From positions 1 to 32,352 of IMG/VR virus record IMGVR_UViG_3300045591_000053: DNA of 32,352 nucleotides; one strand, given 5' to 3'. The stretch's first letter is position 1. The number at the start of each line of letters is the position of its first letter. Source of the stretch: a virus. A program made the translations under genes and the position numbers. Shown one piece after another: positions 1,132 through 22,851 of the stretch. The notes under the pieces were generated by a model that saw only the letters and a list, made by a program, of their open reading frames with translations, did not search any database and was not told where the DNA came from.

Positions 1132-1779
1132 CTAACCTCTCTTTGCATTCGCAATTGCCATTACGGCGCACGCCCTCGCGTGCGTCATGCGCCGCCGCGC
1201 AATCTCCTTGCGCGTCCGCTCAATCTCTCCGTTAAGCAGGTTGCGTGCGCTTATCTCGGTGTTGGGGTCAGCCGGAAGGCTCACCGCCGACACGTCGAAA
1301 ACCTTCTTGATGCGCGTGATTGTGTCCGTGCGCGTCTCACGGTCGTACTCGTCAGCAGCCACGGTGAAAGCCCATGACATGCGCGTGATAAGCCCAGCTT
1401 CGATTTCCTCGTAAAGGTCGCGTGCCGCTTGGCTGCGCGAAAGGTCGGCGGCGATGAACAAGCCGTGTTCGTCAGGCTCGACAATCAACGTGCTGTTGCT
1501 CATGCGGGCGTATACGCGCCCCTCATGGTCGAACTGCATAATCACGTCGGACATGTCGGCATCGCGGAAGGCATCGGGGCTGATAACCTCGCTGTATTTG
1601 TTGCCGTCCCAATCCTCGAACAGCACATAAGGGTCGTTGAAGGTCGATGCGTAGCCCTCTACGTAGTAATCGGAATCAAACCGCTTCTTTGGTTCCTCGG
1701 TCGTGACCTCGGCACGCTTGACCGGCGCAAGCGCCGTCGTTAGTGCGCGATACTGCCTTTCATTCGGTTTCGCTGGCAT
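1132..1779 (-). CDS. Prohead (capsid maturation) protease, HK97 family
   Basis: 215 aa. Lies between portal and capsid. Sequence YVEGYASTFNDPY...ISPDAFRD...MQFDHEG...IAADLSRSQAARDLYEEIEAGLITRMSWAF is typical of the HK97 prohead protease family (recalled from memory). Confidence 0.85.
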   Translation of the reverse strand: MPAKPNERQYRALTTALAPVKRAEVTTEEPKKRFDSDYYVEGYASTFNDPYVLFEDWDGNKYSEVISPDAFRDADMSDVIMQFDHEGRVYARMSNSTLIVEPDEHGLFIAADLSRSQAARDLYEEIEAGLITRMSWAFTVAADEYDRETRTDTITRIKKVFDVSAVSLPADPNTEISARNLLNGEIERTRKEIARRRMTHARACAVMAIANAKRG

Positions 1780-3049
1780 CGTCTGCCCCCTCGTTCGTGT
1801 TGCTTGCCGTGTTTCCTAGCTGGTCTGAAATGGCAATGTTGGCGTTCGTCTCGGCTGCTTCCGCCGCCGCTTCCGCCGTGTGCTCGCTGATCAAGTCAAG
1901 GTCGATGTACTCGCCGCGTATCACGTGGCGTTCGCCGCCGTCATAGTGCGGCGATTGGAATATGTCGGCTACTTGGTTGCCGCTGAAAACTCCACGGTCG
2001 AACATCGCCGTAGCAACGTTCAGCTTGGTTGCGTTGCTTGCGAACTCCAACCGGTTTGCCGAAAACATGATTTCGTTTCCGTGGGCAATCTCGGTCTTGG
2101 TGAAGGTCATCGTCGTTAGCACGAACCCAAGCTGTACGGCGAACGTCTCAATGTTGCCCTCATAGAAGGCGTTGTAAGTCTCTTCGTCGGCACGGTTTAG
2201 CACCACGTCTTCAGACATGCCGAAGAAGCGGTATGCCGCCTTCTCTATGCGCTCCATCTGTTCGGCGTCAACGGTGTAGCTCGACGGCGTAATCTGCTGC
2301 ACGTCATCGAACAACCGGTCGTACACGGCGATGCCGCCCGAATTCTCAGGGGAAAGCTGCCGGTTGAAGTCGTTCTTTGCCTTCTCCTTGTCTTCGTCGT
2401 TGCGGTTCTGCGAAAGCTTGCCGATGAAGCGGATGAAGGCACCTTGCTTGATTGCGTTCTGCTCGCCCTCGTTCTGCGCGTGGAGCAGTTCAAGCGTCGG
2501 ATTTAGAACGTTAGTGCCATCTCCGAACAGGTCGGAACGGTATTGGTGCCGCGTCATCACGCCGCACCTTGACCACTCGACATAGACGGTCTGACCGGTA
2601 GGGAAGTCAAGTCCTAGCCAAAGTTCGCCGTCCACGTCATACGCCGTGCAGCTGTTCGGCAACACGGGGTAATAGCCAACCTGCGTAACGTTGTCTTCCG
2701 CAAAAATCGGGATGATCAGCGCCGTATCGTTGACTTGCAGCATCGTATAGATGCGCTTGATGAATTGCGGTGTTGTCATCCATGGGTTGGGCTGGTACCT
2801 CAAAGACGCCGTGGCTTGGCTTTGCGCCACGCCTTGGATTTCCGGCTTCAGCTTTGAAGCGTGGTTCGCGCCGCTCTCGATGATTGAACGCGTAAGCTCT
2901 GCTTCGTAGATTCCGCCCGTCCACGTCGTGAAGCTCGGCTGGTAGGCGGTGAACGTCGAAAAGTAGCCGTTAACCGCCTTGACCTGTGGGCGGTGAAACA
3001 CTGCGTCGAACATCGAACGCAAGCGCCGACGCCTTTTCACTCTTGCCAC
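1760..3049 (-). CDS. Portal protein (HK97-type)
   Basis: 429 aa. Immediately downstream of TerL and overlaps the protease start. Size and position are canonical. Confidence 0.85.
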   Translation of the reverse strand: MARVKRRRRLRSMFDAVFHRPQVKAVNGYFSTFTAYQPSFTTWTGGIYEAELTRSIIESGANHASKLKPEIQGVAQSQATASLRYQPNPWMTTPQFIKRIYTMLQVNDTALIIPIFAEDNVTQVGYYPVLPNSCTAYDVDGELWLGLDFPTGQTVYVEWSRCGVMTRHQYRSDLFGDGTNVLNPTLELLHAQNEGEQNAIKQGAFIRFIGKLSQNRNDEDKEKAKNDFNRQLSPENSGGIAVYDRLFDDVQQITPSSYTVDAEQMERIEKAAYRFFGMSEDVVLNRADEETYNAFYEGNIETFAVQLGFVLTTMTFTKTEIAHGNEIMFSANRLEFASNATKLNVATAMFDRGVFSGNQVADIFQSPHYDGGERHVIRGEYIDLDLISEHTAEAAAEAAETNANIAISDQLGNTASNTNEGADDASETE

Positions 3050-3051
3050 GT

Positions 3052-4770
3052 CTAACCCCCTATCATTGATTGGTATTCGTCCGCCATGTCCTTTAGGACA
3101 ACGAACGCATCACACTCAGCCGCCCAAGCGTCAATTCGGTTGCGCGGGTCTTGGTTCTTCTTGTCAGGCGCAATGTTGCCGTTGGCGTCACTACGTACAG
3201 CCACGTTCGAGCGGCACCATTCCGCAATAGGGTTCGCGTTATCGACAATCTTGTTTTCGCGGTAAAGCGCTCTAAGTTCCTTCATGGGCATTGATAGGGT
3301 CTGTGCGCCCTGAACAACGCGCCTGAAGTAGTCGGCACCGAAATAGCCTTCGTATGCTTCGACGGTCGGAACGTCTCGCATGTGCCACGGGTCATAGCCG
3401 CACGCGGCGGCATATATGCCGTACTTGTCCTGAATCTCTTGAACCCATTCGAGGACAACGCGCTTGTCGATGATTGGCGTTGCGCACGTGCGTAGGTAGC
3501 CGTTCGCAATCCAAGCATCGTAGGGCACGCCGTCACGCCCGCCGCGCCGTCCCTCGCGCTCGGCTTGCTCCAACGCGCGTTCCGGTATCCATGCCATGTG
3601 CATTGCATAGATGTTTTCGTCGTTCGGGCGCTTCATCAACATGCACGCCGCCGTTAGGTCGGTCGTGTCGGATGCGTCCACGCCAAGGATTCCGTACTTG
3701 AAGCCGTCCGCCGGGTCGAACGTGGCCGCGTTGTGAATCTCAGACCACGTTAGCCAAGCTTGGCTTTGGTTCTCAATCAAGTTGAAGTCTTTCACAAGCA
3801 GCGTCGGCAAGAAGGTAGGATCGTTCTTTGCCTTTGCAACGTTCTTCTTCAGCGCCGCTAGAGACTTGATTTTCCCTAAGCCGGGGTTGGCTTTGTACCA
3901 AGCCGCTTCATTTTCCCATTCCTCCCGTTCGTCCAGCTCGTACACAAACGCAATGAAGTGCTCTGCATCGACGCCGGTTGCCTTGCCGTCCAGCCAATTT
4001 GCCGCGTATTTGTATTGCGCGTCAAAGATGCCCGCACGGACAAAGCCGTTGGTTGTGATCTCCAGAACCAGCGGTTGGCGTCGCGCCGATGTGCCTTGAA
4101 TGGTCAGGTCGTACAAGTCGCGGTTGCGCATCGCGCCCAGCTCGTCAATGATTGCGCCCGACACGTCCAAGCCGTCTAGGTGGTTGGTGTTAGCCGCAAG
4201 GGCGCGAATGACGCCCATGTTCAAATCACAGTACAAATCAGCAACGCACTTCCGCACGTGCTTTGCCAGCGCCGGTGAAGTCTTGACCATTCGCAAGGCG
4301 TTGTTGAATCCCTTTGCCGCTTGGTCATGGGCGGTTGCCACGTTGTAGATTTCCGGTGCGCCCTCGTCATCGTTTACCAGCAAATCAAGCTCGATTGCAG
4401 ACGCAAGCGCCGTCTTGCCGTTCTTCCTTCCCATGATCCACAGCACTTCACGGTATTGCCGCAAGCCCTCGGCATCAACGAACCCGAAAATCACTGAAAG
4501 AATGGCAAGTTGGAATAGCTCTAGGTTGAAGGCGTGCCCAAGCTTGCCGGAAGGAAGCCGGCAAAATCGTTCGATGAAGCCGACGTGCTTCTCTGCGTAT
4601 TCCTCGCGGAAGTGATACGGATAAAGCGGGTCTTTGTTATCCATGTCGCGCAAGACGATTTCGGCAACCTGCTTCATCTTGCGGCAAGCCGTGATTGAGC
4701 CGTCTTTGATACCGCCGAAATAAGACCTTATGGCACGTTCGCAACGCCCAGCCTTGCGCGGCTTAGTCAT
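3052..4770 (-). CDS. terL: Terminase large subunit
   Basis: 572 aa. Walker A-like WIMGRKNGKTAL and Walker B-like GAIIDELG, with a C-terminal nuclease-like region. Overlaps TerS by 8 nt. Confidence 0.9.
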   Translation of the reverse strand: MTKPRKAGRCERAIRSYFGGIKDGSITACRKMKQVAEIVLRDMDNKDPLYPYHFREEYAEKHVGFIERFCRLPSGKLGHAFNLELFQLAILSVIFGFVDAEGLRQYREVLWIMGRKNGKTALASAIELDLLVNDDEGAPEIYNVATAHDQAAKGFNNALRMVKTSPALAKHVRKCVADLYCDLNMGVIRALAANTNHLDGLDVSGAIIDELGAMRNRDLYDLTIQGTSARRQPLVLEITTNGFVRAGIFDAQYKYAANWLDGKATGVDAEHFIAFVYELDEREEWENEAAWYKANPGLGKIKSLAALKKNVAKAKNDPTFLPTLLVKDFNLIENQSQAWLTWSEIHNAATFDPADGFKYGILGVDASDTTDLTAACMLMKRPNDENIYAMHMAWIPERALEQAEREGRRGGRDGVPYDAWIANGYLRTCATPIIDKRVVLEWVQEIQDKYGIYAAACGYDPWHMRDVPTVEAYEGYFGADYFRRVVQGAQTLSMPMKELRALYRENKIVDNANPIAEWCRSNVAVRSDANGNIAPDKKNQDPRNRIDAWAAECDAFVVLKDMADEYQSMIGG

Positions 4771-5188
4771 ACCGCGTTTCTGCTAGGTATTCCGTCAGGG
4801 CATCAGCAGCGCTTGCGCCCGCTGGCATTAGATCGCAAAGCTGCTTTATGCCCCTTTGAAACGTAGTGAATAGCTTGTTATAGGCGACAAAGCCCGGATG
4901 CTCGCGCAATCCCGTTTGCCCTCCGCCGTTGTCGTACTCGCAAACGATGTGCTCATTCATCAGCTCTTTGCGGGCTTCGTCCAGCTTCACTTTCATAAAT
5001 GCCAGATTCGGCAACATGCTAAGCACAACGTTGCGCTTCTCGTCCGGTATGGCGTCTTTCGTTATGCGCTGAAGCTTGCGCAACTCCGAATCGACGCGTG
5101 CTTGCGTGGCGGGCGGCTTGCACTTTTTTGAACTTGTGTCGATTTTTGCCGAAACTTGCGAACTATCGCACACTTTCTTTGATTTCAC
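4763..5188 (-). CDS. terS: Terminase small subunit (P27-like)
   Basis: 141 aa, directly upstream of and overlapping terL, and downstream of an HNH gene. This is the canonical HNH-TerS-TerL arrangement of cos-type phages. Confidence 0.7.
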   Translation of the reverse strand: MKSKKVCDSSQVSAKIDTSSKKCKPPATQARVDSELRKLQRITKDAIPDEKRNVVLSMLPNLAFMKVKLDEARKELMNEHIVCEYDNGGGQTGLREHPGFVAYNKLFTTFQRGIKQLCDLMPAGASAADALTEYLAETRYD

Positions 5189-8077: not shown

Positions 8078-9304
8078 TCATCCCGACACACTTTCAGCGC
8101 TTGCCATCGCATCGTTGACGGCTTTTTCAAACACCGTCGCTGCGTACTCGTCGCGCCCCGGCAACACGTGCGCATAGATTCGCAACGTGGTTGCCACGTC
8201 CCTATGCCCCAAGCGCTCGGAAACGGTTTGAATGTCAACGCCATGCGTAAGTAGCCATGTCGCGTGCGTATGCCTTAGATCGTGGAACGTGAAGCCCTTC
8301 GGCATGGCGGTGTTCATGGCAAGGCGCTTGAATGCCTTTGAAATGGCTGTCGGTCTGCAATAGCCGCCGTCGAACGTCACAAGTGGCGCGTCTTGCGGAA
8401 GCTCGCCACAGAACGACGTTCTAAGCCTTATGAAGCCGTCTATCGTCTCAATGTCCGACTTGCTAAGGCTGACCGGTCTTGACCTGCGCCCCTTCGTAAC
8501 GTCGCGCCTATACGGCTTCTTGCCCGTCTCTTCAATCACGGTGCCGCCGACAAGGATTTGCGGCTTCTTGTTCTCTTGCTTCTCCTTGGAATAGTCGCGG
8601 TTGCGCACGGCGCACACCTCGCCGCAACGCATCCCGGTTGCAAGCGCCATCCAAGCGGCAAACGCGTTCATTGCATTTCTGTACGTGTGCGCGTCTATAA
8701 TGGAAGGTTTAAGCAATGCTTTAAGCTGTGCTTCAATCGCCCTGAAATCACCTATGTTCAGCGCTTGCGCTTCATGGTGAACAAGTTTCGGCTTATCGAC
8801 GCTTAGCAGCGGGTTTGAATCGCAAACCTTCATCCTCACAAAGAAGGTGAATGCGGCGTTAAGGAAGTCATGCACGCCGCGAACGCTGTTTTGCGACAAG
8901 CCTTGCCCGCCGGCGTCCTTCGGCGTGAGCAACCTTTGCTCAAAGCGCGATAGATCAAAGCTGCTTACGTCGCGGGCGTTGACGCTCGGAAGGTACTTGG
9001 CAACCTTGGCAACGTATCTTGTAAACCTTTTGTAGGCACGCACGCTGTTTGGCGAATAGCCGTTACGTGAACGCATGTCTATGAACCCGTTAAGCAGGTC
9101 AACAAGCAAGGCGCTATCGAGAAGACCGTTGGCGGTTAGGTCAGACTTCCACGCTTCCGCAAGCTTGATTGCTTGTTCTTCCGTCTCGGCTGTCGGAAGG
9201 TCGCGTTGCTTCTCGACCTTCCTTCCGTCATCGGTTCGCCCGATGAACAGACGCGCAACCCAGACGCCGCGCCTTGCGTCCCACTTGACCTTAACGCCAG
9301 CCAT
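8078..9304 (-). CDS. int: Tyrosine recombinase / phage integrase family protein
   Basis: C-terminal catalytic box FHDLRHTHATWLL...LGHRDVATTLRIYAHV, with an upstream ...ATGMRCGEVCAV (Arg box). The N-terminus MAGVKVKWDARRGVWVARLFIG looks like an arm-binding domain. Start chosen at 9304; the track ORF extends to 9352. Confidence 0.85.
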   Translation of the reverse strand: MAGVKVKWDARRGVWVARLFIGRTDDGRKVEKQRDLPTAETEEQAIKLAEAWKSDLTANGLLDSALLVDLLNGFIDMRSRNGYSPNSVRAYKRFTRYVAKVAKYLPSVNARDVSSFDLSRFEQRLLTPKDAGGQGLSQNSVRGVHDFLNAAFTFFVRMKVCDSNPLLSVDKPKLVHHEAQALNIGDFRAIEAQLKALLKPSIIDAHTYRNAMNAFAAWMALATGMRCGEVCAVRNRDYSKEKQENKKPQILVGGTVIEETGKKPYRRDVTKGRRSRPVSLSKSDIETIDGFIRLRTSFCGELPQDAPLVTFDGGYCRPTAISKAFKRLAMNTAMPKGFTFHDLRHTHATWLLTHGVDIQTVSERLGHRDVATTLRIYAHVLPGRDEYAATVFEKAVNDAMASAESVSG

Positions 9305-9473
9305 TTTTAACAGCCTTCCCGATTGCGTATGCCGTAACAAGGCACGAAACAAGGCACGTCAGCACATAGGCAAGCAGCCCGAACCAAACGCCGTTGAAGA
9401 TGCCGACGCCGATTCCAACGCCGATAGGAACTGCCGCAAAAAGCAGCACGATTGCCAAGCACCCACGGTTCAT
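9291..9473 (-). CDS. Small membrane protein (2 predicted TM helices)
   Basis: 60 aa, hydrophobic (CLAIVLLFAAVPIGVGIGVGIF...FGLLAYVLTCLVSCLV). Overlaps both neighbours. Confidence 0.5.
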   Translation of the reverse strand: MNRGCLAIVLLFAAVPIGVGIGVGIFNGVWFGLLAYVLTCLVSCLVTAYAIGKAVKNGWR

Positions 9474-15598: not shown

Positions 15599-17146
15599 AT
15601 GAGTAAGAACCGCGCGGCTATATACGCCCGCTTCTCGTCGCACAACCAGCGCTCGGAATCAATCGAAATCCAAGTTGAAAACTCAACCGCCTATTGCAAG
15701 GAAAATGGGCTTGAGGTCGTGCGCACCTATGCGGATTATGCCAAGACCGGGCGCAACGCTGATCGTGCCGAATTTCAACGCATGATGGCAGATGCCCGAA
15801 CGGGCTTGTTTGATTATGTGGTCATCTACAAGATAACCCGAATCATGCGCAACCGCGATGAAATGGCGCTCGCACGTATCATGCTGCGAAAGGCGGGCGT
15901 TGAAATCCTCTATGCAGGTGAGGAAATCGCCGACGGTTCCAGCGGCGTCCTTCAACTCGGAATGTTGGAAGTGCTCGCCGAATACGAAAGCGCCATTGAT
16001 AGCGAACGCATCAGGGACGGCATAAAGAAGAACGCTGAAAGGTGCATGGCGAACGGGCGCACGCTCTACGGGTGGGACATTGTAGACGGCTATTACCAAG
16101 TCAACGAACGTGAAGCCTATTGGCTGCGCAAGATGAAGAACATGTTGCTTAGCGGGTCAACCATGGCTGAAGTCGTGCGCGGCGTCTCTGCCATGCGCAC
16201 GCGCAACGGCAAGCAGCTGAATCAGGACACGGCTACAAAGCTTCTCCGTAGGGTTCAGAACGGCGGCACATACTCTTATGCGGGCGTTGTCGTTGATGGC
16301 GGAATGCCGGCGTTCTGGTCAAAGACCGAACAAGACATGATCATATCCATTCTGAAGCGCCGCCATAAGCCGCATAGGCGTATAGACAGTTCGCAAGAAT
16401 GGCCGCTGACCGGCAAGCTTTGGTGCGCTTGCTGCGATGCCACGTTGTCGGGAACCAGCGGAACAAGCGCCACGGGCAAGACATACGCCTATTACAAGTG
16501 CAACAAGTGCGGGCGTACCTTCAGGCGCGACATTTTGGAAGATGCCATTGTCGATGTGGTCTGCCAAGCGGTGAAGCAGCCCGAAATTAGAGAAAACATC
16601 GCCTACGGAATGGCGCAATATGAAGCGTCGCAAGAAGACGATACGCCGCTTGAAAGCGAAAGGATAAAAGGGGAAATTCGGCGCATAGACAACGCCTTTG
16701 AAAGAATCTGGCAAGCCATAGAAGACGGCATAGCGCCGCCGGGTGGCAAAGAAAGGGTTGAGGAATTGCGCGAACGCAAGACTGACCTTGAAACCCAGTA
16801 CCAGATAGCGAAAGCCAACGAATCGGCTAAACCTAGCTACGATGATCTAATGCGTTGGCTTGACGAAATGGCGGAACATCTGACGCCACAAGAAATTTTG
16901 AAGATGTTCATTCGCGCCGCCGAAATCGACGGTGACGTTATAAGGCTGTTTTTTGCCTTCGATTACTACGGCGATGATTTCACACCGCCAAAGCATAGAC
17001 ACGAACTAGCCCAGAAACGGGCTAGTTCGTGTATTTCTCCTATGGTGGAGCCTAAGCGAAATAGCGCGAACGCTTACACGATAACGCTAAAGTGCGGCTA
17101 TTTGCAGGTGAACCGTAACTGGTTCGTGATTGTGCGCGATATATAA
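15599..17146 (+). CDS. Large serine recombinase (serine integrase)
   Basis: N-terminal resolvase domain AAIYARFSSHNQRSESIEIQ. Recombinase domain. Zinc ribbon CACCDATLSG...YYKCNKCGRTF. Coiled-coil region. 515 aa. Confidence 0.9.
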   Translation: MSKNRAAIYARFSSHNQRSESIEIQVENSTAYCKENGLEVVRTYADYAKTGRNADRAEFQRMMADARTGLFDYVVIYKITRIMRNRDEMALARIMLRKAGVEILYAGEEIADGSSGVLQLGMLEVLAEYESAIDSERIRDGIKKNAERCMANGRTLYGWDIVDGYYQVNEREAYWLRKMKNMLLSGSTMAEVVRGVSAMRTRNGKQLNQDTATKLLRRVQNGGTYSYAGVVVDGGMPAFWSKTEQDMIISILKRRHKPHRRIDSSQEWPLTGKLWCACCDATLSGTSGTSATGKTYAYYKCNKCGRTFRRDILEDAIVDVVCQAVKQPEIRENIAYGMAQYEASQEDDTPLESERIKGEIRRIDNAFERIWQAIEDGIAPPGGKERVEELRERKTDLETQYQIAKANESAKPSYDDLMRWLDEMAEHLTPQEILKMFIRAAEIDGDVIRLFFAFDYYGDDFTPPKHRHELAQKRASSCISPMVEPKRNSANAYTITLKCGYLQVNRNWFVIVRDI

Positions 17147-17227: not shown

Positions 17228-18274
17228 CTAGATTTTGAGAACCTGACCCGGATAGATAAGATTCGGGTTCGCAATGCCGTTCTTTGCGGCAAGCTTCTGA
17301 TAGGTCGTTCCGAACTTTGACGCGATGCCGGAAAGCGTGTCGCCGGATTTGACGGTATAGGTCTTGCCGCTCTTGACGTGACCGTTGATAACCGCCATAA
17401 CGCCTTTCCAGCGGAACGAAAGAATAGCCTTGCGCTCTTCTCCGTTGCGGTACTTGCCCGCCCACGTCTCCTTTGCAAGCTCTTCATCCGACGCGCTGCA
17501 AATGTGGTTGACCATGGTTTGAACTTCGTTGTAGCGGTTGCCCAACTTCTGCCTGCGCGTCTCACCCTTGCCGTAATCGTCTCGGAAGACGCCCGCCACA
17601 AGGTCTAGAACGTCCATGTTCTCGATGCCCGTTGCGGGCGCTGAAGGCTTCGGCGCGGGCTGCACGTTTCCGTTGACGGCTGCAAGGCGCTGCCATGCCG
17701 CCGCGTCGATATAGGACTTGTTCAAGTCAAGGTTGGCGCTCCAACCGCTGATGCGCCCACGGCTCGAATATTGGCGAACATCGCACTTGTAAGCGCCCTC
17801 GTTCCAAGGGCTATCCTGCAAGCCGGTTCGGTTCATGTTTGCGTATTGCGCAACCCACTTCGAGCAGCCGCGATTGTCGGCAATCCCCCATGGGAAGAAA
17901 GCCTTGCTTGAATAGATCATGGGCGCAACGCCGGTAAGCTCTTTGACCTTTGCCGCGAGGGCATCAAGGTATGACGTGTTGCCCCACGCGCTGTTCTGGT
18001 ATTCCTCCCAGTCAAGGGCAATAACCGCCCTGCCAATGTATGCCTTGATGTGAGACACGAAATGATTTGCTTCCGCATCGACGCCACCGCCGCCGATATA
18101 GTGGTAGACGCCCAAGCAAAGCCCGCGCGTAACCGCCTGTTCGGCTTGTCGGTAGAAGTCGGGCGAAATATAGCCCGTGTTCTGCGTCGCCTTGCAGATA
18201 ACAAATGTGATTGGCAAGACGTTGAGATTGATTCCGTTCTGATGGTTGCTAATGTCAATTCCCTGCATCGTCAT
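17228..18274 (-). CDS. Endolysin: GH25 muramidase + two Cpl-7-like (CW_7) repeats + C-terminal LysM
   Basis: [10 protein letters not shown]...ICKATQ...GVYHY...DWE (GH25). [25 protein letters not shown] and [14 protein letters not shown] (Cpl-7-like). [43 protein letters not shown] (LysM). Start chosen at MTMQGID. Confidence 0.9.
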
Positions 18275-18968
18275 TGTTGCCCCTTTCCATGCAGACGAAA
18301 TAGACAAGGTTTGCTTGTGCCAACTCGTCGCGCGAGAAGGCACGCGCCGAATTGGCACCGCTTGCCGGGTCGCGCACCCAATAGCCGGCGTCATCGTGCC
18401 GCCATATCATGACGACGTGCCCCTTATATGCGGCGTCGCCAAGGGTTCCGTTGTGGATGCCCGCGAACGCGATAGCGCCCGCGTCCACGCGTCCCAGCGC
18501 GTCATCAAGGCGGTAAAGCTTGCCGGTGCTAGTGATGCCTGAATCGGGGTACGTCTCCACGATCCATTGCCCGAACTTCTCAGGGTCGTTCACGCCGTCC
18601 GTAAGGCACGAATCGCCCACGGCGGCGGCAAGGTCGGGCGGCGTTACCTCGTACCCAGTAAGGTAGGTAACCGCCATGGCGGCGCATGTAAGCCCGCAAC
18701 CGCTGTCGCCGATTGTCCCGCCGGCGTATGGCACATTCGCCCATTGCGGTTCTGCCTGAAGGTACAGCGGCATGAAAGTGCCCGCCGGTTTCGGTGCGGC
18801 GGGCACGTCATCAACTCTTTCAAGCTGCGTTATCTGTTCGTGCGTTTCGGGCGGCGGCGTGTTGGCTGCGTTGATCATGAGCGCAAGCCCGATTGAACCA
18901 GCCGCCAAGACGCCGCAAAGGAACGCGGCAACCAGTGGCAAGGGCATGTGGCGGCTAAGCGGTCGCAT
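18255..18968 (-). CDS. Membrane-anchored papain-like cysteine peptidase (Peptidase_C39-like domain). Probable second lysin.
   Basis: N-terminal signal-anchor [23 protein letters not shown]. Catalytic-Cys motif [16 protein letters not shown], and a later GHVVMIW...D. Sits between holin and endolysin. Confidence 0.6.
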
Positions 18969-19575: not shown

Positions 19576-20022
19576 TTAGCCTTCTGTCACTTCACGCCAA
19601 ACGCTTCCGGTGCCGGTTGCGCCCGGTTCCCAAACGTTGTTAGCAACGATTGACTCCCAAACCTTCCCGTTGTGCTTGACGCGTGCACCCTGCGAGTAAG
19701 GGTTCGTTGAATCTGGCTGAACCCATTCGGGAATCTCGCCCGTCGGCGTGTCGGCGGTTCCGGCGGAAAGCGTCTTAGCCCAAAGGCTCACAGCCGCCGA
19801 TGGTGACCAATCAGCTTGTGAAGTGTGCGCCTGAAGGCACGTGTAAAGCGTCCCTTCGTATGAAACGCGCTCGCCCTCTGCGTAGGCGTGTGCGTCGCCC
19901 GTCCATGCCGGATAGATGGCGGGCGCGATTTCTGCCAAGTCATCTGAAAACGCGGATGCCTGCATCTTGTAGATCGCGAGAATGCCGCGCAACGCCGCTT
20001 CTTCCTCTTCTGTGAATGCCAT
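19576..20022 (-). CDS. Carbohydrate-binding protein with two CBM5/12-like repeats
   Basis: WTGDAHAYAEGERVSYEGTLYTCLQAHTSQADWSPSAAVSLW, and YSQGARVKHNGKVWESIVANNVWEPG...W. Confidence 0.6.
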   Translation of the reverse strand: MAFTEEEEAALRGILAIYKMQASAFSDDLAEIAPAIYPAWTGDAHAYAEGERVSYEGTLYTCLQAHTSQADWSPSAAVSLWAKTLSAGTADTPTGEIPEWVQPDSTNPYSQGARVKHNGKVWESIVANNVWEPGATGTGSVWREVTEG

Positions 20023-20042: not shown

Positions 20043-20062
20043 AAGCCCGCATGTGCGGGCTT
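20043..20062 (-). terminator. Hairpin at the 3' end of the DGR reverse transcriptase gene
   Basis: 8-bp stem AAGCCCGC/GCGGGCTT with a 4-nt loop. On the minus strand it is followed by TCTTATTGTG. Confidence 0.5.
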
Positions 20063-20090: not shown

Positions 20091-21116
20091 TCAGCCGAAA
20101 AGCTGCGAAAACAACGCGTCCATGCTCTTAACCGTCCTGTGCGCGTCTAGCTTCTTCAGCTTGCGCCGCTCGCGCGTCACGGCGGCGCGACAAGGGCGCA
20201 CAATGACTTTGCCAGTTTCGCCATACTCAAACCTCTTCTTCAGATAGGTAAAGCCGTGCGATAGCTTCACTATGTGCGTCTTCTTCTCGTTGACGATGAT
20301 TCCCAGCTTTTCGCACTCTCGCCGAATATCCGCCATGACGGCGTGAAGGTCTGACTTGTGAAGCGCGATGCAATAAAGGTCATCCATGTAACGCCCGCTC
20401 GCGAGAACGCAAGGCGTGCGCAACAACATGTGGTCGATAGGGCTTGGCAACGCGACTGCTAATACTTGGTTCGGTTCGCTGCCAAGCCCAAGACCACGTG
20501 AGCCGTGGGAATCAATCTGATCATAGACAAGCGCCTTCACGCGCGAATCGTCAAGGCACCTATCGACAAGGCGCTTTGCCGCGTCGTGGTCGATGTTTCC
20601 AAAGTAGTTAGAGAAGTCAACAAGCAGTATGTAGCCTTCCCGCCCGTGCTTCTGGTAGTGCCTTGCAAGCTGCCGTTTGAGACGCTTTAGCGCGTATTCG
20701 GTGCCGCGTCCCTTGATGTTCGCCGAACAACCGGCGGTGACCGTCGGAATTATCGCCGGGACAAGCGCGTAACGGTTCATCGCCTTGTGTATGACGCGCT
20801 CGGAAAAGCGAACCGACGTGATGTGCCGCATCTTCCCACGCTCGCAAATGTCGAACTCAAAGAATCCGCGCCGAATGTCCTTGCCTGAAAGCAGGTCATC
20901 ACGCGCCCTGCGAACGTTCGTTAGGCACCGCGCCATGTATCGTTGAACGGATGCCTTCCAGCCAACGCCGCCGCTGCAAGCGTGGGCGCACTTGTAAAGG
21001 TGGTCAACGTCCGTAATCTGTTCAAGCGTGCATTGTTCTATGCGCTTTGCCTTGTTCGCGGCTCTCTTTGCATCGCGGCGGGCACGTCTCGCCGCCCGCC
21101 GCTCTTCTGATTTCAT
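20091..21116 (-). CDS. DGR reverse transcriptase
   Basis: RT motifs ILLVDFSNYFGNIDH and RYMDDLYCIA (YxDD). LGSEPNQ occupies the position of the DGR-typical (I/L)GxxxSQ motif. Start chosen at MKSEERRAARR (21116); the track ORF extends to 21203. Confidence 0.9.
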   Translation of the reverse strand: MKSEERRAARRARRDAKRAANKAKRIEQCTLEQITDVDHLYKCAHACSGGVGWKASVQRYMARCLTNVRRARDDLLSGKDIRRGFFEFDICERGKMRHITSVRFSERVIHKAMNRYALVPAIIPTVTAGCSANIKGRGTEYALKRLKRQLARHYQKHGREGYILLVDFSNYFGNIDHDAAKRLVDRCLDDSRVKALVYDQIDSHGSRGLGLGSEPNQVLAVALPSPIDHMLLRTPCVLASGRYMDDLYCIALHKSDLHAVMADIRRECEKLGIIVNEKKTHIVKLSHGFTYLKKRFEYGETGKVIVRPCRAAVTRERRKLKKLDAHRTVKSMDALFSQLFG

Positions 21117-21320
21117 AGGCACCCCGCACGGCTTCCAATCGGCATTCCATAGCCGCTTAGGCACCAGCAATGAAACGCAAGCGAACGCCGAAACCTGCGC
21201 CATGCAAGCAGCGGTCTGCGGTGCCCACGGGGTGCGTATTTACGGCGCAAGCGCCGAACGTTGCATCTTCCTTCCTTGTGCGCACGGATTGCGGACGTAT
21301 CCGCAATGACTGGCATTGCA

Positions 21321-21449
21321 AAGGAATCACGGGCGCGGGCGTATCCACTCATTCGTCGGCACGTTGTTGTTGGCATTGCCGTTGTTGTTGACATAGCACG
21401 CGTTAGACGCGGAACCACCAGCCACCGAACGGAGCCACCAATTGGCACG
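21321..21449 (-). repeat. DGR template repeat (TR), 129 bp
   Basis: Aligns without gaps to 21958..22086. In the VR frame it encodes RANWWLRSVAGGSASNACYVNNNGNANNNVPTNEWIRPRP*FL, with 11 AAC/AAT Asn codons. Confidence 0.95.
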
Positions 21450-21476
21450 CGATACAAGATGCAACGCCTTTCCATT

Positions 21477-21884
21477 CTACCGCGCGCCAAGCAGCTTCAC
21501 ACCCTTTCGAGCGCCCCTAATCAGCTTGATTTCGTTCTCTAGGTCATCCGCCAAGCGCTCGCACCTGCTCACCTTCACAACTCCAAGGTCTGCAAGACAT
21601 TGAAGGTCTTGCAAAAGCAGCTCGCAAGCGGCAACGGCAAGCGTCAGATAGTGCCTTCGATACGTGATGTTGTGCTCGGTGTTCGGATAGAACGCGTCAG
21701 CGGTCACAATGTCGCCCACTATCTCACGCGCCGCCTGCGCCATGGGAACAGCGAGAATGAACCGGTATGACTTAGGCATTGCGGCGGACGTCACAAGCGC
21801 CGTTATCTCGGTGCGGATTCGTAGCGCGGTGTTGAAATACTCATATCCGCTGATGTTCCGGTAGCGTGCCAATACGGTACTCAA
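21477..21884 (-). CDS. avd: DGR accessory variability determinant (Avd-like four-helix-bundle protein)
   Basis: 135 aa, helical. Lies between the target gene and the TR and ends 27 nt before the TR, as in the Bordetella phage BPP-1 DGR. Confidence 0.75.
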   Translation of the reverse strand: MSTVLARYRNISGYEYFNTALRIRTEITALVTSAAMPKSYRFILAVPMAQAAREIVGDIVTADAFYPNTEHNITYRRHYLTLAVAACELLLQDLQCLADLGVVKVSRCERLADDLENEIKLIRGARKGVKLLGAR

Positions 21885-21906
21885 TGCAAGCCTTCCTTGT
21901 TAATGC

Positions 21907-21924
21907 GCCCGCCTTTCGGCGGGC
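21907..21924 (-). promoter_or_regulatory. GC-rich hairpin with a GAAA tetraloop about 33 nt downstream of the VR. Candidate DGR target-recognition cruciform.
   Basis: The minus strand reads GCCCGCC-GAAA-GGCGGGC, a 7-bp stem. No U-tract follows. Confidence 0.5.
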
Positions 21925-21948
21925 ACCGCCAAGCGATTAGCACGGCTC

Positions 21949-22851
21949 TTAGCCTATAAGGAAGCACGGGCGCGGGCGCACCCACTCACCCGTCGGCACG
22001 TAGCCGTCGGCAATGCCGGCGCTGTCGACATAGCACGCGTGAGACGCGGAACCACCAGCCACCGAACGGAGCCACCAATCGGCACGGTCGCCATTCAGGC
22101 GCTTTGCCGTGCTGTCAAAGATGGGAAAGTGGCAGTCGAACCCGACGGAATAGCCCTTGGTTCCCCAAACGCACTGACCATAGACTTCTGTTTCCGAAAG
22201 TGACCAAACCTTGCCTAGATCCTGCCAACTCCAACCAGCGGATTCGGTAAGCTTCGTGCTAGACGAATAGCGCTCTTCGAGCAGTACGCGTTGCGTCATA
22301 AGCACGTTGCGCAAGGCTGAAGGAAGCGCCGGCAAGAAGTCGTTGATCTCCCAGTCGTGCAGCTTTGAAACAAGATATGGGTTCTTCACGTCGGCGGTTC
22401 CGTTGTTGTCGTTGGTGTCTCGCCAATGGATATAGCTGTTGTTCACGGCTTTAGCGCCTTGCACGGCAACTGTTGCCCTCGGAACAAAGGCGATATGATG
22501 CCCTTTCGGCTGGTCGCCGCACTGATAATACGGGTCAATCGCCGCGATTTGATAGCGCACCGTCTGCGCCGGAACGTTGGTAGTGGCGGAAACGGGTACG
22601 TCCATGTAATCCCCGATGCGCAAGCCGGTGAAGTTGCCCGCCTTTGCGCGTGATTGCAGCCACGCATAGACGTTGGACGTTCCAATCTCGCCCGCGAACG
22701 CATCGGCAAGCGAACGTCCGCCGTATGTCCCCGCGATCACTTGCCGGTCGTATTCCTCGGCTGCTGTAACCGCCGCCGCCGTGGCTCTTGCCGCCGTGTC
22801 CTTCAGGTCATACGCCGTGCCGTTGATTGAAAGCTTTGAAAGGTCAGCCAT
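21949..22851 (-). CDS. DGR target protein: tail fibre / receptor-binding protein with a C-terminal C-type-lectin-like (DUF1566-like) variable domain
   Basis: 300 aa, immediately downstream of the BppU-like gene. The C-terminus ...RADWWLRSVAGGSASHACYVDSAGIADGYVPTGEWVRPRPCFLIG is encoded by the VR. Confidence 0.85.
   Translation of the reverse strand: MADLSKLSINGTAYDLKDTAARATAAAVTAAEEYDRQVIAGTYGGRSLADAFAGEIGTSNVYAWLQSRAKAGNFTGLRIGDYMDVPVSATTNVPAQTVRYQIAAIDPYYQCGDQPKGHHIAFVPRATVAVQGAKAVNNSYIHWRDTNDNNGTADVKNPYLVSKLHDWEINDFLPALPSALRNVLMTQRVLLEERYSSSTKLTESAGWSWQDLGKVWSLSETEVYGQCVWGTKGYSVGFDCHFPIFDSTAKRLNGDRADWWLRSVAGGSASHACYVDSAGIADGYVPTGEWVRPRPCFLIG
21958..22086 (-). repeat. DGR variable repeat (VR), 129 bp, codons 256-298 of the target gene
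   Basis: Differs from the TR at 16 positions. All are A in the TR coding strand (T on the plus strand as given). Confidence 0.95.

Follow-up and report, generated by a model that had tools for sequence, protein, structure and literature searches.

The prototype of the diversity-generating retroelements (DGRs) is that of Bordetella phage BPP-1, in which the target gene mtd is followed by avd, the template repeat (TR), and brt. Among the named phages, the closest relative of the system described here is the DGR of Roseburia phage Shimadzu (LR596903.1, orf22–orf24), in which Avd and the reverse transcriptase (RT) are annotated and the order of elements is target, Avd, TR, the structured RNA RT-2, and RT. 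DUF6273 proteins in which the domain carries the variable repeat (VR) C-terminally are already known from the literature to be targets of DGRs, namely in Faecalibacterium prophages (Roos, Pioen, Lelie, and Toutatis-like) and in phages nd4 and nd12 (PMC11792537; PMC10743442; bioRxiv 10.1101/2024.10.15.618418). Here, we analyzed the viral record IMGVR_UViG_3300045591_000053 of IMG/VR over its positions 1–32,352 (hereafter, the window), whose tail module almost certainly harbors a complete DGR diversifying a DUF6273 tail protein. This element is a textbook DGR that has recently been active. Literature searches on DUF6273 or Collinsella in combination with “diversity-generating retroelement” yielded no description of this DGR family of Coriobacteriia, and the DGRs of this phage group have not been described individually.

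The cassette of the window, the coding strand of which is the minus strand throughout, follows the order of BPP-1, that is, target, avd, TR, structured spacer RNA, and RT. In both systems VR encodes the C-terminus of a receptor-binding protein of the tail, AAY codons abound in the template, the TR/VR differences are A-specific, and a GC-rich 14-mer at the 3′-end of VR is followed by a GC hairpin with a GAAA loop (PMC3240598; PMC5758913). Unlike Mtd, the target in the window belongs to DUF6273, the spacer RNA corresponds to Rfam RT-2 instead of the RT-10 of BPP-1 (PMC5737381), and motif 4 of RT ends in NQ and not in SQ. The TR/VR homology of the window stops 6 nt past a single fixed A/C difference, whereas in BPP-1 it continues through the 21-bp imperfect repeat formed by the initiation of mutagenic homing (IMH) element and IMH* (defined and termed in PMC5758913), and the window phage, unlike BPP-1, has a Gram-positive actinobacterial host. 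The counterparts in Shimadzu show 37% (C-terminal domain of the tail fibre), 43.8% (RT), and 25% (Avd) identity to the window proteins, but Shimadzu has the canonical RT motif LGSETSQ, a Firmicute host, a 431-aa fibre, and a myovirus-type baseplate (Baseplate J, P2 gpI/gpU), while the window encodes a 300-aa target next to siphovirus-type Dit/Tal/BppU proteins. The RTs of the Faecalibacterium prophages and of nd4 and nd12 are 27–34% identical to that of the window; in these DGRs, two targets or fusions to Ig-like “tentaclin” domains are common, and the hosts are of another phylum, in contrast to the single target without a second VR found here.

Differences between TR and VR are confined to template adenines

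The initial annotation of the window had proposed, from an alignment made by hand, that TR (21321–21449, minus strand) and VR (21958–22086, minus strand) match over 129 bp without gaps and differ at 16 positions, all of them template adenines. Scripted pairwise comparison of the two segments bore this out: the 129 nt aligned gap-free with 16 mismatches, each of which has T on the plus strand of TR, that is, A on the coding strand (TR bases are given below on the coding strand). Tabulation by TR base (26 A, 38 C, 37 G, and 28 T) revealed substitutions at 16 of the 26 adenines and at none of the other bases, and no indels were present. The changes from TR to VR comprised 11 A>G, 3 A>C, and 2 A>T substitutions, and the hypergeometric probability that 16 out of 16 mismatches fall on 26 adenines among 129 positions is P = 5.0e-14. 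The pair was the top and longest direct repeat of the region in a repeat search (88% identity), its similarity breaks off sharply at both ends, and its differences are confined to template adenines, as expected of the near-repeat of a DGR. Neither a third TR/VR copy nor a second target gene was found in the window, even if the A positions were masked. A short repeat match at 22390–22409 turned out to be a chance similarity within the target gene (NDNNGT codons).

TR begins 27 nt past the stop codon of avd and lies between avd and the RT gene; it is noncoding and conserved, and contains a TGA if read in the frame of VR, while VR encodes residues 256–298 of the 300-aa target, that is, the C-terminus of the ORF, as is typical of DGRs. 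Twenty of the 26 adenines of TR belong to AAY codons in the VR frame. The number of these codons proved to be 10 (1+1+3+1+3+1) instead of the 11 counted by the annotation; the variable residues it had listed (D258, H271, D276-S277-A278, I280, D282-G283-Y284, G288, and the I291V change) agreed with the codon table. The 16th mismatch, which had not been listed, is a TGA in TR versus TGC (Cys296) in VR, and its attribution to mutagenesis did not stand, as discussed below for the 3′-end of VR; the other 15 differences fit mutagenic retrohoming. The 25 mutable adenines are those of the 10 AAY codons and of one TAT, ACG, GAG, and ATA codon each, and they allow approximately 1.8e14 protein variants (15^10 x 4 x 4 x 4 x 5) without generating new stop codons.

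Near-identical phages carry different VRs

To compare VRs among related copies, as the initial annotation had suggested, two sets of loci were collected. The close set was taken from the contigs of the 90% cluster of the target protein (6 members), and 7 close loci were compared; the wider set came from a scan of GTDB genomes, which resulted in 80 related loci with 76 unique TR/VR pairs. Nearly all of the 80 loci were found in Collinsella, and the others in Olsenella, Gordonibacter, Adlercreutzia, Senegalimassilia, and other Coriobacteriia. At the DNA level, the cassette had no megablast match among 50,697 phage records, and the exact 22-nt TR/VR core pattern gave no match in the viral contig collection.

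In the near-identical phages, which originate from other metagenomes, the same or nearly the same TR was associated with different VRs, and the differences lay at TR adenines. One close locus (L001) was identical to the window. Another one (L003) differed from it at 21 positions over 4784 nt, 14 of which are in the 129-nt VR and 2 in TR, leaving 5 for the 4526 nt outside the two repeats, corresponding to approximately 11% divergence in VR versus 0.1% elsewhere (about 100-fold). In a third locus (L002), the first 765 nt of the target gene showed no difference at all, yet VR differed. In 7 of 7 close loci each TR/VR difference was at a TR adenine; the TRs differed from each other at 0–4 positions, while each VR differed from its own TR at 15–16. 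The non-A polymorphisms of TRs (alignment columns 45, 79, 85, 105, and 116) recurred in the VR of the same locus, which is the expected mark of TR-to-VR copying. The same asymmetry was observed in the wider set, where 793 of 1799 A sites of TRs (44%) were substituted in the 76 pairs versus 35 of 7473 non-A sites (0.5%). Thus, the annotation's claim that the pair belongs to a DGR that has been active was supported by the intact components, by the different VRs of near-identical phages, and by the agreement of the 76 relatives.

These data also bear on other explanations of the locus. The DGR of the window could be a relic, in which VR was diversified in the past, but the present copy no longer retrohomes and the 15 A-site differences are frozen. 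Nothing in the window shows ongoing activity, and the identical VR occurring on 5 contigs indicates that the allele is at least transiently stable. However, the RT ORF with its YMDD motif, avd, TR, the full-length RT-2, the GC-rich 14-mer, and the hairpin are all intact, and genomes diverged by only 0.1% already differ in VR, which places the activity very recently on the scale of this lineage, so we regard a relic as improbable. Still less probable is an exchange of pre-existing VR alleles between the close relatives through homologous recombination, as opposed to their new formation in each lineage; a DGR would remain the ultimate source of the alleles in this case as well. Alleles can indeed spread unchanged, since the same VR occurs in L005 and L006, which come from two samples, and the window has its VR in common with L001; nevertheless, five different VRs were found in five TR backgrounds, each with the non-A polymorphisms of its own TR, and such markers are predicted by copying from the resident TR and unexpected for imported foreign VRs. 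Finally, an ordinary 129-nt duplication shaped by point mutation or RNA-independent gene conversion without any retroelement, for which nothing speaks beyond the existence of a direct repeat, can be considered refuted by the confinement of mismatches to one base of one copy (P = 5e-14), by the 44% versus 0.5% asymmetry in the relatives, and by the adjacent RT, Avd, and structured RNA.

A fixed A/C position and hairpins at the 3′-end of VR

The 16th mismatch corresponds to column 122 of the alignment (window position 21327 in TR and 21964 in VR), which is A in TR and C in VR in 76 of 76 related pairs and, therefore, represents a fixed difference; with this position set aside, 15 of the 25 mutable adenines are changed in the window. 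The A of column 122 gives the in-frame TGA in every TR. It is located 3′ of the GC-rich 14-mer CGCCCGCGCCCGTG (21965–21978, minus strand) at the 3′-end of VR, and is followed by 6 nt shared by TR and VR. Consequently, VR can be divided into a mutable part (21965–22086), the fixed C at 21964, and the common segment TTCCTT (21958–21963). In the close loci and the 76 pairs, no variable column was found 3′ of column 107 apart from column 122, and the 14-mer marks where an IMH-like element begins and where A-mutagenesis stops on the 3′ side. From the sequence comparison, the most plausible reading of column 122 is that IMH and IMH* differ there in a fixed manner and that the difference is not a product of mutagenesis, and it looks like a single-base discriminator of IMH and IMH*. 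The 3′-end of VR thus has an IMH-like element with a GC-rich start and TR a non-identical IMH*, as in other DGRs; their role in homing would be analogous to that in BPP-1.

A GC-rich hairpin (GCCCGCC-GAAA-GGCGGGC, 21907–21924, minus strand), predicted as a centroid structure, lies 33 nt 3′ of VR. In phage DGRs, a hairpin with a GC stem of 7–10 bp and a 4-nt GRNA loop in the sense strand is typically found 4–34 bp past VR, and replacement of the GAAA loop by CTTT abolished homing in BPP-1 (PMC3240598). The window hairpin, with a 7-bp stem, a GAAA loop, and a distance of 33 nt, conforms to this pattern and is a candidate target-recognition hairpin or cruciform by analogy. Its function as an intrinsic terminator was considered and rejected as no T-run follows it. 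A GC-rich hairpin is kept 30–38 nt past VR in the relatives, where at least 8 distinct stem sequences occur and the stems covary, which argues for selection on pairing (the automated hairpin scan was mis-anchored in about 28 distant loci, and these were excluded). Regarding the loops, the sense strand has CTTGC or CTCGC in most relatives with this hairpin (L008–L037 and L071–L082), and the GRNA consensus of BPP-1 is matched only by the clade of the window (GAAA) and by L007 (GCAA). A small hairpin (GGCT-AAG-AGCC, 21944–21954, minus strand), noted by eye without statistics, overlaps the last codon (Gly300) and the stop codon of the target. In relatives, this stop-codon hairpin is likewise present, with stems of 4–7 bp (GGCTGAT-AAA-ATCAGCC, and also a GGTT/AACC version).

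Avd, RT-2 RNA, and reverse transcriptase

The avd gene (21477–21884, minus strand) encodes 135 aa from a TTG start located 6 nt after the ribosome-binding site AAGGAAGG. Its product matched phrog_3206, “Avd protein of DGR”, in PHROG (E = 2.7e-8) and the annotated, syntenic Avd of phage Shimadzu (25% identity, BLASTP E = 3e-10), and these two matches identify it as the accessory protein of the DGR.

A full-length match to the structured RNA RT-2 of Rfam (RF03077; 90.8 bits versus a gathering score of 40, E = 8.7e-20) extends over 21099–21318 on the minus strand, from 2 nt past TR into the start of the RT gene. RT-2 was found in the same position at 10 of 10 related loci checked (L004, L007, L008, L011, L018, L024, L026, L031, L071, and L087), the last of which is phage Shimadzu (positions 4891–5114). 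By analogy with BPP-1, RT-2 would form the spacer of the DGR RNA and may act in priming. RT-2 has been described only as occurring near RT genes, and RT-10 alone was tied to a DGR, although a DGR function of further RT motifs was put forward as a speculation (PMC5737381); the position of RT-2 in the cassette supports this speculation.

The RT gene (20091–21116, minus strand) encodes 341 aa from the ATG at 21116; its longest ORF begins at 21203 and would overlap the RT-2 structure. The protein belongs to Pfam RVT_1 and to phrog_1423 (E = 3.3e-55), and contains LGSEPNQ as motif 4 and YMDD as motif 5. Among PDB entries, it is related only to 8ub7 (“Reverse transcriptase”, 328 aa; E = 6.5e-10), which we take to be the bRT of BPP-1 and whose IGSLTSQ is aligned to LGSEPNQ. 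The motif-4 signature of DGR RTs is (I/L/V)GxxxSQ, and NQ is a documented variant found in functional-looking DGRs (PMC3521204); judged by its motifs, the window protein thus carries a known variant of the signature together with an intact YxDD. A retron, group II intron, or defence RT was rejected, as the NCBIfam group II, retron, and Drt scores were far below the cut-offs, no intron RNA was present, and TR/VR accompany the gene. In L003, a 78-nt insertion (4785–4862, corresponding to about 20149–20154 of the window) was noticed near the 3′-end of the RT gene, where the RT call is 398 aa versus 370 aa. A consensus scan detected a terminator-like hairpin with a T-rich tail at 20043–20062 (minus strand), 29 nt past the RT stop codon, which is the probable end of the cassette transcript.

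Considering RT-2 together with the column 122 discriminator and the non-GRNA loops of the relatives, it is possible, if somewhat doubtful, that discrimination between target and donor in this group differs from that of BPP-1 and that RT-2 is the spacer or priming RNA of a large DGR clade of gut phages.

The target protein and its predicted structure

The target gene (21949–22851, minus strand) encodes a 300-aa DUF6273 tail or receptor-binding protein, in which residues 143–293 matched the Pfam domain (E = 1.9e-11); NCBIfam gave no match for the target. A first AlphaFold2 (AF2) model, for which 24 close homologues were used, was of poor quality (pLDDT 65), which made the PDB search meaningless. 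It was replaced by a model based on 48 sequences including relatives of the Shimadzu fibre, which reached a pLDDT of 91.7 and a pTM of 0.87. In this model, VR is predicted to form strands at residues 259–265, 272–275, 281–284, and 296–299, with the variable codons on or around the 272–284 hairpin. The only significant PDB structure match was 9qa6 (E = 3.7e-6, 285 aligned columns), and it fell on the N-terminal DUF6273 domain that PMC12402451 names in the IgA peptidase of Thomasclavelia ramosa. In the viral structure library, the model gave 27 matches to DUF6273, receptor-binding, and tail-fibre proteins. The profile of the target family retrieved only chance matches to cytochrome oxidase from the PDB sequences, and no significant sequence or Foldseek match was obtained between the target and Mtd. 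The resemblance to 9qa6 suggests, at the level of the model, that a protease secreted by a gut bacterium makes renewed use of a receptor-binding fold of phages.

The 90%-identity clusters of related targets (P0126, P0161, P0052, P0106, P0050, and P0022) contain hundreds to thousands of distinct member sequences, with 6759 in that of the Shimadzu fibre, while the window target belongs to a cluster of 6. The large clusters are the database footprint of VR hypervariation.

Genome context and host

Directly upstream of the target gene, a BppU_N baseplate protein is encoded, preceded by a Tal-type “Prophage_tail” protein, Dit, the tape measure, and the major tail protein; a CBM_5_12 protein, holin, and endolysin follow downstream of the cassette. 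From these neighbours, the target is the last gene of a siphovirus-type tail-tip module. The phage is temperate and siphovirus-like, and its hosts are gut Coriobacteriia of the Collinsella/Olsenella group. The CBM_5_12 protein (19576–20022, minus strand; 148 aa), which has two of these carbohydrate-binding modules, lies between RT and holin and is kept in place in all close relatives; a role as a second adhesin or as an accessory to lysis is possible. The window represents a circularly permuted, near-complete genome with the terminase, portal, and prohead protease genes at 1132–4770 and tail genes running to 32172. Two integrase-type genes are present, coding for a large serine recombinase (phrog_95; 15599–17146, plus strand) and a tyrosine integrase (phrog_1; 8078–9352, minus strand). 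The endolysin ORF (17228–18394, minus strand; 388 aa) overlaps the preceding ORF, for a Peptidase_C39_2-like protein (18255–18968, minus strand), by 140 nt, and since its PHROG match starts from residue 36, the true start of endolysin is probably further downstream.

Discussion

The reading that the window carries a complete DGR, which we hold with high confidence, has some points weighing against it. Avd has no Pfam, NCBIfam, or credible PDB sequence match, and its assignment comes solely from PHROG and the Avd of Shimadzu. Motif 4 of RT ends in NQ instead of the canonical SQ. Direct evidence of present activity, such as reads, cDNA, or VR heterogeneity within a sample, is lacking for the window copy.

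By analogy with BPP-1, from which the biochemistry, the roles of Avd, RT-2, and the hairpin, and receptor binding by the target are inferred, the cassette could work as follows. Transcription of the avd–TR–RT-2–RT region would provide both the proteins and the template RNA. RT with Avd would bind the TR/RT-2 RNA and synthesize TR cDNA, inserting random nucleotides opposite the template adenines and copying the other bases faithfully. The cDNA would then take the place of VR, with which the DUF6273 tail-protein gene ends at its 3′ side. The GC-rich IMH-like element, together with the GAAA hairpin downstream, would set the targeting on the 3′ side, and the end of TR/VR homology would do so on the 5′ side. 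In this way, variation would be placed on a β-hairpin region with which the receptor-binding domain ends C-terminally, presumably letting the phage track changes of the host surface.

The present results leave the knowledge of how DGRs work unchanged, and DUF6273 targets have already been published; the fixed A/C position, the non-GRNA loops of the relatives, and the association with RT-2 are modest leads. Nevertheless, they add a well-documented, apparently active DGR to the phages of Coriobacteriia (Collinsella, Olsenella, and Adlercreutzia), which are common gut bacteria. The 76 TR/VR pairs, the near-identical genomes with different VRs, the fixed IMH/IMH* position, the covarying hairpins, and RT-2 together constitute a natural data set for the rules that DGRs follow.

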